Below are positions 38,427 to 42,532 of a stretch of 52,782 bases of DNA, one piece after another. The DNA comes from Escherichia phage vB_EcoM_swi3. The notes beneath the pieces were generated by a model that had not been told where the DNA came from, did no database searches, and saw nothing but the letters and a program-made list of their open reading frames with translations. Positions within the stretch are counted from its first letter, which is position 1. Every line of letters starts with the position of its first letter. The translations under genes were made by a program, and so were the position numbers. Location: sequence record MT768059.1; one strand, 5' to 3'.

Positions 38427-39019
38427 TAAAACAGTTCCTTTTGAGCCGGGTTAACGTGTGCGTCGATGATGGCCTGGATGTCAGGTGCTTTCCATCCTTC
38501 AGGCTTAACAATATCCTGACCAGACTTATGCTTGCTGTTGCTTGCATCAGGCTTAGCGCGTTCTTTCGCCATGTTAGCAGCCTGTACAGCATCCCATGCT
38601 GCGTCAAGTGGCCAGTTGTTGTTTGCACACCAGGTAATCAGGTGGATAATTAACTGGGCCAGACGGTCGCAATGAGTGTCTTCAGTATCCTTAACGTATA
38701 CAATAAGGCCATCAGCATCGAAACGGTCCATAAATCCGCATGGCGTAGTTAACAGAATAGGATACTCAAATTCGTTGGTGAACCATGCAGTCTGGTCATA
38801 CAGGTATAACGTACCTGCAGCGATGTAAATTAAATCTACAATACCGTCTAAGAATCCAGCTTTATCGCCGTCCTTCTTAGCTTGTTTAATTTCTTCCATC
38901 TCCTCAATAAGACGGTCGTAGCGAAGCTTGAACTCAGGTTTACCGCCTTGACTAACAGGCTTGAGGTCAAACTTCTCATGAAAAGCGGTAACGCCTGCAG
39001 CAATTTTACTGAATCGCAT
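38426..39019 (-). CDS. putative MazG-like (all-alpha) nucleoside triphosphate pyrophosphohydrolase
   Basis: ~197 aa from ATG at 39019 after GGAG; EExxE motif (LIEEMEEI) and downstream acidic helix (DGIVDLIY). Confidence 0.45.
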   Translation of the reverse strand: MRFSKIAAGVTAFHEKFDLKPVSQGGKPEFKLRYDRLIEEMEEIKQAKKDGDKAGFLDGIVDLIYIAAGTLYLYDQTAWFTNEFEYPILLTTPCGFMDRFDADGLIVYVKDTEDTHCDRLAQLIIHLITWCANNNWPLDAAWDAVQAANMAKERAKPDASNSKHKSGQDIVKPEGWKAPDIQAIIDAHVNPAQKELF

Positions 39020-39404
39020 TTCGTAACTCCTTACAAACAGTTTCGATAAACTTACGTTTAATTTCTGTAGACCAGATAACATGACGAGCCTGTTCTAAAG
39101 TGTCCCAACGTTCTTTACCCACAGGAAAGGGAACAATGAAAAGGCCGGTACGGGATATGCGCTTGATAAACGGGAATTTACATCGCATGGTTGTTTCAAA
39201 CTTGATAAAGTTGGTTTGCACTTCGCGTGTAAACTTGACCTTATCAAATTCATGTTCAAGAGTTTGAGCAAGGTTGCATACTTCCTGGAAAGAAGATGTG
39301 GGTAAGTAATCTTCGCGGCCGACGGTGTTCACGTAGTCGATTTGGCCTTCGAGTCGAAGTATCCAAATCCTGTAATAAGCTTCAGCAACACGTTGTAGGT
39401 TCAT
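39006..39404 (-). CDS. hypothetical protein
   Basis: 132-aa ORF downstream of promoter 39431..39459. Confidence 0.45.
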   Translation of the reverse strand: MNLQRVAEAYYRIWILRLEGQIDYVNTVGREDYLPTSSFQEVCNLAQTLEHEFDKVKFTREVQTNFIKFETTMRCKFPFIKRISRTGLFIVPFPVGKERWDTLEQARHVIWSTEIKRKFIETVCKELRNAIQ

Positions 39405-39430
39405 TGTATCTCTCCTCTAAAAGATAACTT

Positions 39431-39459
39431 ATTATACCACATCACTCTCTAGTGGTAAA
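39431..39459 (-). promoter_or_regulatory. sigma70-like promoter with extended -10 (TTTACC-N17-TATAAT, TGG upstream of -10)
   Basis: Reverse complement reads cTTTACCACtagagagtgatgTGGTATAAT. Confidence 0.5.
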
Positions 39460-39480
39460 GCACTTTTTACGCTTCTGGTA

Positions 39481-39515
39481 AAATAAAAAGGACCAGCGTT
39501 AACTGGTCCTTTTGG
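39481..39515 (-). terminator. rho-independent terminator
   Basis: GGACCAG-cgttaa-CTGGTCC hairpin; minus strand reads TTTTTATTT after the stem. Confidence 0.6.
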
Positions 39516-40079
39516 CAGGGTGGCGTAAGGAGATACAAGGCATCGTAACTATGCAACCAGGCAGCGCATATGAGATTGGCCAAAAGACTTACCATTTTAA
39601 TCCCCGCGACGAGACGAAAGGAGGTGTTATCGAGTAGCCAATCACATATGCGTTACTTGCTGTGTGCTCTTACCGCGGAAAGTATAGAGCGTTGCACTTA
39701 TCACACCGATGGAGTGGCAAAAGCACACAGCGAGTACAACCTTAGTTGTGGTGTCTTAGCACCTGAGTTATTGTGGATAACCTGCACCCGACGGGTGTCA
39801 AAAAGATACGCCAAAACACCACAACTAAAATTGTGACCGCCGTCTACACCAGGCGCCTGGGGTCAAGGTAGCGAGCCAATACCCTTTTCAGCGTCGGAGG
39901 AATCGAACCTCACACATCACGGCTTTTACCAAATCTCGGTCAGCGAGCAGAATTGAACTGCATTCACTGGACACCCTCACTGTTTCAACACACCAGGCTT
40001 AATTGATTGTTGATAAGAAGAGAGATGTAAGGATGTCCATTGAATGCACCTCCGTAGAGGTGCGTTCAGATCAGCGCTA

Positions 40080-40547
40080 TTATTCAGCAACTTCTTCGTT
40101 GTCGCCTTCGATCGCGCCAGCCAGTTTAGCAGCTTCAGCTTTAGCAGCTTCTGCTTTCTGGCGAGCTTTTTCAGCTTTCTCTTCAGCTTTGCGAATCTGC
40201 TCAGCAGCTTTCGCTTCGGCTTTTTCAGCTTTGATGCGAGCACGCTCTTCAGCTTTACGCTGTTTTTCAGCGGCTTTAGCAGCATCGCGTTCTGCTTTAG
40301 CGGTATCAACACGCTTAGCCAGAACCTTACCAGTGGCTTTACGCCAGTAGGTCAGCTGGGAAGAAACAGTACCACGGGACATTTCGGTAGTGGCAACAAC
40401 TTCGTCCATAACGTCAGAGCTGGACTTGCCTTCTTCATGGGCTTTATCAGCCAGGTCCCATACATAACGTGCACCAGTACCAGCTGCCGGATACAGTACG
40501 CCGTTAACTTCTTCTTTACCAGTTACAAAAGTCAGTTTCTCGCTCAT
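40080..40547 (-). CDS. protein with Ala/Lys/Glu-rich repetitive C-terminal tail (histone H1-like low complexity)
   Basis: ATG at 40547 after GAGGAA; C-terminal ~70 aa of AKAEK/AEKA-type repeats with acidic end. Confidence 0.5.
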   Translation of the reverse strand: MSEKLTFVTGKEEVNGVLYPAAGTGARYVWDLADKAHEEGKSSSDVMDEVVATTEMSRGTVSSQLTYWRKATGKVLAKRVDTAKAERDAAKAAEKQRKAEERARIKAEKAEAKAAEQIRKAEEKAEKARQKAEAAKAEAAKLAGAIEGDNEEVAE

Positions 40548-40653
40548 AATTTTTTCCTCGTCTACAGGGCTTAATGTTTGTTCGTTACGTGAGTTAATAT
40601 ACGTCATTTAAAAGAGTGTGTAAACACCTTTTTTAAACTTTTTTCATTAGTGT

Positions 40654-40875
40654 CTAGAAAGGCACATCATAGTCAAAAAGTTTACATCCGGAAGACAGGA
40701 CTGCCGGCGGTGGTGTTTTGCCTCCGGATAACAGGCAACCTCCTGCCTGAAAACTACGGCAGTTCGCACAGCTCATATCCTGCAAGTATATAATAAGCTG
40801 TCGGCGAACATGCCGGGGTAAAGCTTTAGCCTGGGTTGCTACCCGTTCAAATAGTTCTCTGTCATCGAGCGCCAT
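40654..40875 (-). CDS. hypothetical small Cys-containing protein
   Basis: 73-aa ORF with CANC...GGC...GC. Confidence 0.35.
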   Translation of the reverse strand: MALDDRELFERVATQAKALPRHVRRQLIIYLQDMSCANCRSFQAGGCLLSGGKTPPPAVLSSGCKLFDYDVPF

Positions 40876-42532
40876 AACCGTTTCCCCAGTCGTAGTTCAT
40901 GATTTGTGGGTAGGGTCGTTTAATCCATACCTTGATGCGCTTAGGAATAGCCAGCTCACCCTTACGGCGAATAAACTCATCGCATGTTTCAGGCGGTTCT
41001 GTTCCTGCAGCATTACGCCACCAGGCATCTGCCATTTGCTTAGCATTGCCATGGGCCTCTATATTTACCCAGGTTGTATACACTTCCAGGTTTGAGTAAT
41101 ACACAACCTTTATACTGTCAGGTCGTCCCTGCTTCTGGAATAAAGAATAGTTTACCAGCGTAACATCTTTATCCACAACACGAAGCTGACCGTTAGTCAT
41201 TACCTCTTCTTCTGATGAAGTGAAGGCAATGGCAGGTCCGTTAACTGTAAACTCAAATTCATGTCCGCACATCGGATATACACCATTCTCGTCTGGCGTA
41301 CTTCCTTTAGCCGGATGCTTACATGTACGGGCTGCATAGCCACTTACCTGGTGACAGATAGGGCACTCTTTACCGCCAGGTGTTTTCTCTGACCGTTTCT
41401 TTTTCTTCTTACCAAGACGAGGTGGAACAGCCGGGTCGTCAATAGGCCCAAGGTCAATGGTGTTAGATGTAAAGTCCATAACAAGACAGTCATGCTTGCC
41501 AGGCGCTGTACGTAATCCTCGACCAAGTATCTGCACCCACAAAGCAACAGACGTGGACGGGCGCAAGATGCCGAGCATATCAATCTCAGGATAGTCAAAT
41601 CCTGTAGTCAATACGTTTACGTTTACACAGACCCGTGCTCGTCCGCTTGTAAACTCTTCCAGTGCGGCTTCACGTTCTTTCTTTGTAAGACCGCCATGCA
41701 CAACTACAGTCTGCCACCCTCGCAGATTAAATTCGTCTGCTATGTTGTGGGCGTGCTCAACACTTGTGGCAAATACAAGAACGTGGTTCCTGTCTTTACC
41801 GTAGTGCATCATCTCACGAATAGCCGCGACTGTTATACTATGCTGGTTGGCTACCTTCTCAAGCTCTGACGGGATGTAGTCACCCATCCTTTCGCCAACA
41901 TTACTGGTGTCAATCTTGGTTAACACTTTCTTGTTGACCAGGCGCGACAGGAAGCCTTCATTTACCAGTCGGGTGAATGCGTCAGGTGTTGTAAGGTCAT
42001 AGCAGATGTCGGTAAATATACCACAGTCCAGCAAGTGACCACCTGCCAGGCGATACGGAGTTGCTGTGAGTCCTGTTACCTTTACCTTAGGATTAAGCTC
42101 TTTGAAGTGAGCAATAACCTTACGGTATGTTGTTTCAGACTTCTCAGGAACAAGATGGGCTTCGTCAATGAATATAAGATTGAACTTACCTGCTTCTTCC
42201 AGGTTCTTAATAATTGACTGTACAGATGCTACAACGATACGGCCTGAAAAGTCTTTATGTCCTGCACCTGAAGAGTATATTGATACTGGTGCTTGTGGCC
42301 AGTGACGAACAATCGCTTTGGCGTCTTGTTCAACCAGCTCCTTGACATGTGTCAATATAAGAATGCGCTGACGGGGATAGCTGGTAAGAATATCCTTCAT
42401 CAGCATACCAAGCACAGGTGATTTACCTGAACCTGTCGGCATGACAATAAGTGGATTACCACTATAAGAATTGAAGTACGACCACCAGGCTGTGACCGCT
42501 TCTTGTTGATACCAGCGAGCTTCAAAAGCCAT
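40862..42532 (-). CDS. superfamily 2 DNA helicase (DEAH box)
   Basis: 556 aa; Walker A PTGSGKS, DEAH (FIDEAHLV), C-terminal Cys pairs (CPICHQ ... CKHP). Confidence 0.8.
   Translation of the reverse strand: MAFEARWYQQEAVTAWWSYFNSYSGNPLIVMPTGSGKSPVLGMLMKDILTSYPRQRILILTHVKELVEQDAKAIVRHWPQAPVSIYSSGAGHKDFSGRIVVASVQSIIKNLEEAGKFNLIFIDEAHLVPEKSETTYRKVIAHFKELNPKVKVTGLTATPYRLAGGHLLDCGIFTDICYDLTTPDAFTRLVNEGFLSRLVNKKVLTKIDTSNVGERMGDYIPSELEKVANQHSITVAAIREMMHYGKDRNHVLVFATSVEHAHNIADEFNLRGWQTVVVHGGLTKKEREAALEEFTSGRARVCVNVNVLTTGFDYPEIDMLGILRPSTSVALWVQILGRGLRTAPGKHDCLVMDFTSNTIDLGPIDDPAVPPRLGKKKKKRSEKTPGGKECPICHQVSGYAARTCKHPAKGSTPDENGVYPMCGHEFEFTVNGPAIAFTSSEEEVMTNGQLRVVDKDVTLVNYSLFQKQGRPDSIKVVYYSNLEVYTTWVNIEAHGNAKQMADAWWRNAAGTEPPETCDEFIRRKGELAIPKRIKVWIKRPYPQIMNYDWGNGYGAR

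Follow-up and report, generated by a model that had tools for sequence, protein, structure and literature searches.

A 155-residue Rosemountvirus protein with a predicted winged-helix-like domain and charged helical tail, and the structured RNAs encoded behind it

Does a phage protein that ends in a long Ala/Lys/Glu-rich segment act as a histone H1-like DNA coater, and what is encoded in the long untranslated stretch behind its gene? We addressed these questions for a 155-residue protein of Escherichia phage vB_EcoM_swi3 (MT768059.1), whose coding sequence lies at 40080..40547 on the minus strand of the window, the whole stretch of 52,782 nt that was analysed. An earlier note on this DNA had divided the protein into an N-terminal domain and a tail rich in Ala, Lys and Glu, likened the tail to those of histone H1-like and KfrA-like proteins, and suggested a nucleoid-remodelling or DNA-coating factor. 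The two-part architecture was borne out by our analysis, and the histone analogy was not, which removes the tempting but wrong label of a "phage histone H1". The protein itself has been deposited many times already; what is new is the definition of its domain family, the linkage of this family to the replicative helicase and the rejection of the H1 analogy. The stretch downstream of the gene proved to be an array of conserved RNA modules, one of which carries tRNA-like T-arms and recurs in unrelated phages.

A conserved gene in the replication module

The gene starts with an ATG at 40547, preceded by a GAGGA Shine-Dalgarno sequence at 40555-40559, and its product is a homolog of BP63 gp59 and fHy-Eco03 gp60. 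The protein matches the profile of phrog_28664, a family whose function is unknown, from its first residue to its last, with residues 1-155 aligned to profile positions 1-155 (E = 6.4e-99), and as a full-length query it matched no family in Pfam or NCBIfam. We found 42 homologs in phage-sized contigs, and the database records of BP63 gp59 homologs are annotated everywhere as "hypothetical protein". Relative to the colinear phage vB_EcoM_IntR the gene shows only seven differences, all of them at synonymous third codon positions, as compared with 12.5% divergence in the next gene. The gene of the 155-residue protein is real; it is conserved, and purifying selection acts on it. IntR (OM313460.1; locus L061) is identical to the window in total length (52782) and in gene coordinates, and across the 2.1 kb of window positions 38900..41000 the two are separated by 116 substitutions, most of which fall at third codon positions, and by no indels; over the same interval the phages SD350, LSE7621 and brunost are 99.2-99.7% identical to the window.

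With about 52.8 kb, the window is the genome of a Rosemountvirus like Salmonella phage BP63. Over the 2 kb around the gene, more than 40 records of Salmonella and Escherichia phages match at 95-99% identity, and Loughboroughvirus (ZCSE2, S144, SE4) matches at 80-84%. We examined synteny in Loughboroughvirus, in the Erwinia phages SOI901 and RF1 and in metagenomic phage contigs of 45-67 kb. Every relative examined keeps the same order, namely a superfamily 2 (SF2) replicative helicase, a small Cys-containing open reading frame (ORF), the gene, a gap, MazG-like/ThyA and a family A DNA polymerase (PolA). Distant relatives carry QueC/PTPS/GTP cyclohydrolase I (7-deazaguanine) genes in place of MazG-like/ThyA, followed by PolA. 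The position next to the helicase holds even for two homologs (P0038 and P0040) that are 29% identical to the query, and the family is anchored beside the replicative helicase across this broad group of 45-67-kb phages.

The gene has a promoter of its own. A sigma-70-like site (TTTACA, a 17-nt spacer and TATATT; 40596..40624, minus strand) scored 10/12 in our scan, and an A-rich tract lies just upstream of it. In 13 related loci, a promoter-like site precedes the homolog at the corresponding place, and the BP63 record carries an annotated promoter at the equivalent site. The locus is a self-contained, strongly promoted early transcription unit composed of this promoter, the 155-residue gene, a structured-RNA array and a terminator. 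Strong, early-looking expression together with the position in the replication module makes a DNA-associated role plausible. In the literature on Rosemountvirus and Loughboroughvirus we found no paper that treats either the gene or the gap behind it.

The Cys-containing ORF between the helicase and the gene encodes 73 residues, including a CxxC pair, in the window (40654..40875, minus strand), where it and the end of the helicase gene overlap. Most relatives examined have an ORF of about 50-70 residues at this place, RF1 (L007) and contig L011 being those without one. The 73-residue product gave no Pfam match, and it may be a zinc-binding partner of the helicase.

The charged tail, the N-terminal domain and the role of the protein

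The tail (residues 77-143; 40119..40319, minus strand) consists to 93% of Ala, Lys, Glu, Arg, Gln and Asp, with Ala alone accounting for 36%, and contains neither Pro nor Gly. Its 21 Lys/Arg and 14 Asp/Glu residues give a net charge of +7. It is followed by an acidic C-terminal tip (residues 144-155, GAIEGDNEEVAE; 40083..40118, minus strand) of net charge -5, and the protein as a whole, with 30 basic and 30 acidic residues, has a net charge of 0. The low-complexity composition and the acidic end described in the earlier note thus hold, and its "repeats" are only loosely true: Tandem Repeats Finder returned one 15-nt unit in 2.2 copies, and a repeat search gave degenerate copies about 33 nt apart with 62-89% identity. 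The pattern is a compositional bias more than a tandem array.

Poor conservation or absence of the tail in related phages had been named in the earlier note as a finding that would refute its proposal; instead, a tail of about 50-95 residues is present in 42/42 homologs. Composition, length and the acidic end are conserved among these tails, and sequence is not. The last 12 residues are acidic (net -1 to -8) in all homologs but two, which are both at net 0, and the net charge of the tail behind the domain ranges from -8 to +4 across 41 homologs. In an AlphaFold2 model built from a 34-sequence alignment, residues 83-151 are predicted to form one unbroken helix of 69 residues, with a predicted local distance difference test score (pLDDT) of about 88-93. 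Only five large hydrophobic residues occur in 75 residues of the tail, so that there is no clear heptad seam. Pairs of opposite charge at i/i+3 and i/i+4 number 24, compared with 18.3 +/- 3.4 in shuffled sequences, a marginal enrichment that 6.9% of the shuffles reach. On the strength of the model, the description that fits the tail best is a charged rod, rich in Ala and tipped with acidic residues, which would be either a single alpha-helix or a coiled coil based on Ala.

These properties bear directly on the proposal that electrostatic binding and condensation of DNA are the work of the Ala/Lys/Glu tail itself, as in linker histone H1 and bacterial H1-like proteins. The likeness is easy to see: a winged-helix-like globular part is joined to a C-terminal region that is of low complexity, rich in Ala and Lys and, at +7, locally positive in net charge, the head resembles a helix-turn-helix (HTH) domain, and the gene looks highly expressed from its own promoter. 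However, H1-like tails rich in Lys, Ala and Pro are expected to be disordered and to hold few acidic residues, whereas the phage tail has nearly as many acidic as basic residues, lacks proline, ends in an acidic stretch and is predicted to be a stable continuous helix rather than a disordered polycation. What relatives conserve is composition and the acidic end, not positive charge. In addition, the protein gave no match to linker-histone, Hc1 or KfrA_N families at E <= 1; a search for Linker_histone and histone-like families in Pfam at this threshold returned only sub-threshold ATP-synt_B and RR_TM4-6, and the corresponding NCBIfam scan returned nothing relevant. We therefore consider an H1-like, nucleoid-coating protein quite improbable.

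The N-terminal domain (residues 10-76; 40320..40520, minus strand) is modelled with high confidence (pLDDT of about 90) as a beta-hairpin followed by three helices, and its predicted shape is winged-helix-like. Its most conserved residues are P20, W30-D31, D34, Q64, W68-R69-K70 and G73. Q64, W68, R69, K70 and G73 are kept in at least 90% of the sequences, at identities down to 22-33%, and in the model they fall on or just past helix 3, which would be the position of a recognition helix. The helix 3 motif T/S-Q-Y/L-x-x-W-R-K is highly conserved and recurs throughout the 1833 clusters (at 50% identity) that a profile of the domain retrieved from 1.84 billion representatives at E <= 1e-3. Members of this family are mostly 90-300 residues long; Ala/Lys/Glu-rich segments often flank the domain on either side, and some members contain two or three tandem copies of it. 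Two or three adjacent tandem paralogs of the domain protein were also observed in distant phages (L028, L029, L030, L059). The family covers PHROGs 18634, 11298, 7864, 21588, 22313, 17772 and 28664, all of "unknown function", and no Pfam or NCBIfam model matched it. A Foldseek search of the domain against the PDB gave a best E value of 0.8, the same search against BFVD matched only uncharacterised phage proteins, and comparison of the family profile with the sequences of solved structures produced chance matches only. A single biochemical characterisation would annotate thousands of proteins, given the number of clusters.

We propose that the protein belongs to the phage replication module as an abundant early accessory factor that binds nucleic acid, probably DNA. 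In the N-terminal domain, the highly conserved third helix would make the contact with nucleic acid, and the segment of about 70 Ala/Lys/Glu-rich residues would serve as a rigid charged helix, a spacer or an oligomerisation rod. The acidic tip might either fold back on the basic part, resulting in auto-inhibition, or bring in a partner protein; phage single-strand-binding proteins such as T4 gp32 and T7 gp2.5, with their acidic ends, provide a precedent for such a role. Because we infer binding from a weakly matched fold and from context, our confidence in this proposal stays somewhat short of even; what the helix and the tip do, and how the protein connects with replication, we likewise infer.

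Several observations weigh against it. The beta-hairpin is N-terminal to the helices, unlike a canonical C-terminal wing. The N-terminal domain is acidic (pI 5.3) in a protein that is neutral overall, which is unusual for a non-specific DNA coater. Ten distant members of the family (P0051, P0076, P0083, P0093, P0134, P0141, P0144, P0157, P0163 and P0183) have hydrophobic, signal-peptide-like N-termini that precede Gly-rich and Ala/Lys/Glu-rich linkers, and such segments are hard to square with cytoplasmic DNA binding throughout the family. Detection of the fHy-Eco03 homolog in virion preparations, discussed below, is uninformative in this respect. Finally, RiPP (ribosomally synthesized and post-translationally modified peptide) recognition elements (RREs) and PqqD-like peptide-binding domains match the domain at similar scores, so that it could bind a protein or peptide instead.

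This last point is the basis for regarding the protein as an adaptor or host-takeover factor, whose N-terminal domain would bind a subunit of the host RNA polymerase or replisome, or a phage partner, with the helix acting as a spacer and the acidic tip mimicking DNA or a motif of the partner. No significant structural or sequence match points to any particular partner, however, the conserved Q/W-R-K face is typical of nucleic-acid contacts as well, and the close linkage of the gene with those for helicase and polymerase speaks for a part in DNA transactions. An adaptor function appears unlikely to us.

A further alternative is that the protein is packaged with the DNA in the virion, as a DNA-associated head protein or an ejection protein. 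fHy-Eco03 gp60 was detected by tandem mass spectrometry coupled to liquid chromatography (LC-MS/MS) in particle preparations and is annotated as particle-associated on this basis. In the same experiment, 48/81 proteins were detected, the helicase and thymidylate synthase among them, which suggests that detection mainly reflects abundance and means that the gp60 result demonstrates expression, not a location in the virion. Two large family members, P0050 (1363 residues) and P0075 (932 residues), contain the domain together with MuF and ADP-ribosyltransferase domains, the architecture of phage toxins that are packaged in the head of other phages. A generic module for tethering DNA would also fit these fusions and the tandem copies. 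The gene is placed with the early replication genes and not with those for morphogenesis, and the main text of the S144 paper does not list gp48 among the virion proteins. It is thus very unlikely that this is a packaged protein, and a replication accessory factor remains the reading that we favour.

Structured RNAs between the gene and its terminator

The stop codon of the gene is separated by 566 nt (40079..39514) from an intrinsic-terminator-like hairpin (39486..39513, minus strand) with a stem of 11-12 bp followed by UUUUUAUUUU, which ends the unit of gene and RNA. The hairpin is conserved in 5/5 aligned phages, and the promoter of the next gene follows directly after it. The 566 nt contain no consistent ORF; the records annotate differing small ORFs on differing strands. 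The long untranslated stretch pointed out in the earlier note is therefore confirmed in its length and lack of coding, although it is not an odd 3' untranslated region but a structured RNA array. Folding of the transcribed strand gave -233.7 kcal/mol (z = -8.4 relative to shuffled sequences), compared with z = -4.5 for the opposite strand. We considered DNA hairpins of an origin of replication as the source of this structure; the better folding of the transcribed strand disfavours them, as do the many G-U pairs and the changes from U-A to U-G, which in the opposite strand would turn into A-C mismatches.

Within the array lies a T-loop RNA module of 131 nt (39834..39964, minus strand), described by a covariance model, R1, and composed of two T-arm hairpins, a D-loop-like bulge and the helices P1 and P2. 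From its 5' end it consists of AAU, hairpin 1 (GCAG-UUCAAUU-CUGC), UCGC, P1 (UGACC), the 14-nt D-loop-like bulge GAGAUUUGGUAAAA and P2 (GCCG), and it continues with the second T-arm (GAGG-UUCGAUU-CCUC), a variable insert, P2' (CGGC) and P1' (GGUCA). Copies range from 100 to 135 nt. The core motif is found in 23 IMG/VR contigs, 85 metagenome contigs, Rosemount- and Loughboroughviruses and Rhizobium phages (loci L032, L034, L041, L050, L055-L058 and L062-L141 besides the window). A loose pattern run against 185,579 bacterial and archaeal genomes gave a single match, which does not resemble the RNA; the motif is thus essentially confined to phage and metagenome sequence.

Covariation supports the structure. 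RNAalifold applied to six short forms of the module recovers hairpin 1, P1 and P2, and R1, which was built on those six forms, scores the window copy at 55.4 bits (E = 6e-9). Among 50 distinct sequences, 87.8% of cells are paired, compared with 67.6% in shuffles; this alignment was fitted to the model, which makes the counts from it lean towards the structure. For the same 50 sequences the covariation score is 0.383 as opposed to 0.108 after shuffling, a value that 0/500 shuffles reach, and slid controls lie at 0.03-0.10. Double changes occur in every helix, one P1 pair, for instance, being A-U in 35 sequences and G-C in 10. In an independent anchor-based scan, all nine P1 and P2 pairs were intact in 14/23 sequences, whereas shuffles had a mean of three and a maximum of seven.

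The genomic contexts of the module connect it with tRNA genes. In 19/88 distinct contexts a tRNA gene (Ser, Gln, Phe, Thr, Lys, Tyr, Ala or Met) precedes the start of the module by 1-2 nt, and in several contexts a further tRNA begins about 96-104 nt past the start of the module, so that the module fills a tRNA slot in these arrays. ARAGORN nevertheless finds no tRNA or transfer-messenger RNA (tmRNA) gene in the window, and none of the 4227 families of Rfam 15 matched, either at the gathering threshold or, on 161 nt, at E <= 10. The module could still have been a real or decayed tRNA, as its T-arm-like segment GAGGTTCGATTCCTC might suggest. This candidate was rejected on the basis of the ARAGORN and Rfam results, and decay is contradicted by the strong covariation and by 0% divergence from IntR.

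We consider it possible, with a confidence that we place clearly below even, that the T-loop RNA represents a phage-specific class of tRNA-mimicking RNAs that is released by the tRNA-processing machinery and acts in trans as a mimic of the tRNA elbow. Release by this machinery is proposed because in many phages the module occupies a tRNA-sized slot inside tRNA arrays. For instance, host tRNA-binding enzymes or tRNA-targeting defence nucleases could meet in the RNA a decoy or sponge, or the RNA could guide processing. In Rosemountviruses, reported to be "tRNA-free", it would survive within a longer structured-RNA array behind the gp59-like gene. Rosemount- and Loughboroughviruses are in development for biocontrol and are described as lacking tRNAs, yet they carry this conserved tRNA-like RNA, which is also present in the tRNA arrays of unrelated large phages. 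It is therefore a testable candidate for the question of why phages carry tRNAs or their mimics, i.e., codon supply versus countering host defences that target tRNA. In four phage contigs of 70-120 kb (L041, L042, L051, L053), an ORF starting MYDVLTIADYIIRRCS...LKLQKLLYF lies about 150 nt downstream of the T-loop RNA; it presumably resembles antitoxin-like domains of the Panacea/SocA type (DUF4065).

The T-loop RNA is flanked by further modules. Directly after the stop codon, module A (39959..40068, minus strand; inverted repeats) begins with a 7-bp hairpin that is not followed by a U-run and continues with a stem of 18-22 bp. Across seven phages RNAalifold assigns 25 pairs to it, eight of them with compensatory double changes, and it shows no differences from IntR. 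Module A may act as an RNase III-type site for processing or stabilisation, at which the mRNA would be parted from the RNA array. On the other side of the T-loop RNA, hairpin B (39727..39843, minus strand; inverted repeat and RNAalifold) has a stem of about 24 bp and a conserved apical part (GACACCC..GGGUGCAGGUUAUCCACAAUAAC), and differs from IntR by 0.9%. Its apical sequence GUGCAGGUUAUCCACAAUAAC recurs in a divergent 61-kb phage contig, L010 (4640-4750), on a stem of entirely different sequence. Hairpin C (39654..39736, minus strand; inverted repeat and RNAalifold) has a stem of about 18 bp with mostly one-sided G-U/A-U changes, and hairpin D (39558..39659, minus strand; inverted repeat and alignment), with arms of 23 nt, is absent from Loughboroughvirus and differs from IntR by 11.8%. 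Hairpins C and D are less conserved than module A, the T-loop module and hairpin B, which at 0-0.9% differ from IntR less than the surrounding genes do.

The syntenic gap holds real tRNAs in some relatives: tRNA-Pro and tRNA-Gln in Erwinia phage SOI901 (L006, 3083-3243), which keeps module A ahead of them, and tRNA-Gln in contig L010 (5023-5099). In other relatives the gap measures only 135-170 nt. These real tRNAs in relatives make the gap a variable cassette of RNA genes.

Could the protein be a binding partner or chaperone of these tRNA-like RNAs? Structured RNAs directly follow its gene in the same transcription unit, and SOI901 and L010 place real tRNAs there. However, contigs L011 and L013 keep the protein with gaps of only 135-170 nt that lack such RNA, and hmmsearch on six-frame translations of the sequence fetched around the RNA in unrelated phages did not find the domain near it. 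This missing co-occurrence largely refutes an RNA-binding partner, to which we assign hardly any probability, and a functional coupling between protein and RNA was rejected on the same two observations. The 566 nt are conserved RNA modules that are co-transcribed with the gene yet functionally independent of its protein.

Comparison with known systems

Among RNAs, the closest parallels to the T-loop module are YrlA-type Y RNAs, the tRNA-like domain of tmRNA and two stable RNAs of phage T4. YrlA RNAs are recognised by their T and D stem-loops, by a Ro-binding motif of the form GNCGAAN0-1G and by a Ro60/Rsr gene next to them (Chen et al. 2014, PMC4201824). The phage RNA shares with them a canonical T-arm (UUCGAUU loop) and a D-loop-like, GG-containing segment, with the T element placed ahead of the D-like element, and it shares an unpaired D-loop analogue with tmRNA. 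It differs in having two T-arms, no acceptor end with CCA and no Ro60/Rsr gene in its fetched neighbourhood. Membership of the YrlA or Y RNA group was rejected, as the gap contains no GNCGAAN0-1G motif and no Ro60-like gene is among the annotated neighbours; nothing in Rfam 15 matched either, a release in which the presence of a YrlA model was not checked. The species 1 and species 2 stable RNAs of T4 (rnaC and rnaD) are likewise small RNAs of unknown function within a phage tRNA cluster, and rnaC also ends in a T-arm. Homology to them was rejected, since the best T4 matches of R1 score 12-18 bits and lie on ordinary T-arms. We found no description of the T-loop RNA in the literature; PMC10690425 has 10,006 unnamed candidates, which could not be checked and which may include it. 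Within the broad class of tRNA mimics, it seems to be a member that has not been described before.

For the tail of the protein, the ER/K single alpha-helix (SAH) and the Ala/Lys/Glu-rich domain II of TolA offer a comparison, since they form long uninterrupted charged helices with few large hydrophobic residues, as is predicted for the phage tail, and relatives of the protein give weak NCBIfam matches to tolA-type regions. Compositions of the SAH class serve as rigid spacers. The phage tail departs from ER/K helices in that its charge-pair enrichment is only marginal, and its high Ala content could equally support an Ala-based coiled coil.

The overall layout is closest to that of KfrA, an alanine-rich DNA-binding protein of plasmids RK2 and RA3 (KfrA_N, PF11740), which has a small N-terminal HTH-type head and a long Ala-rich helical tail and is likewise a small, abundant accessory protein of a replicon maintenance or replication region. 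The two differ in setting, a lytic-phage module between the helicase and MazG-like/ThyA/PolA as opposed to a plasmid partition operon or central control region, and in the tail, which in the phage protein is much shorter, far more charged and acidic-tipped. The KfrA-like character put forward in the earlier note fails as a family assignment, as KfrA_N is not matched by the window protein even at E <= 1, nor by ten distant members of the domain family at E <= 0.01. It stands as architecture: the AlphaFold model has a three-helix, HTH-like head and a 69-residue helix in its Ala-rich tail. KfrA is the nearest named protein in which an HTH head is joined to a long helix.

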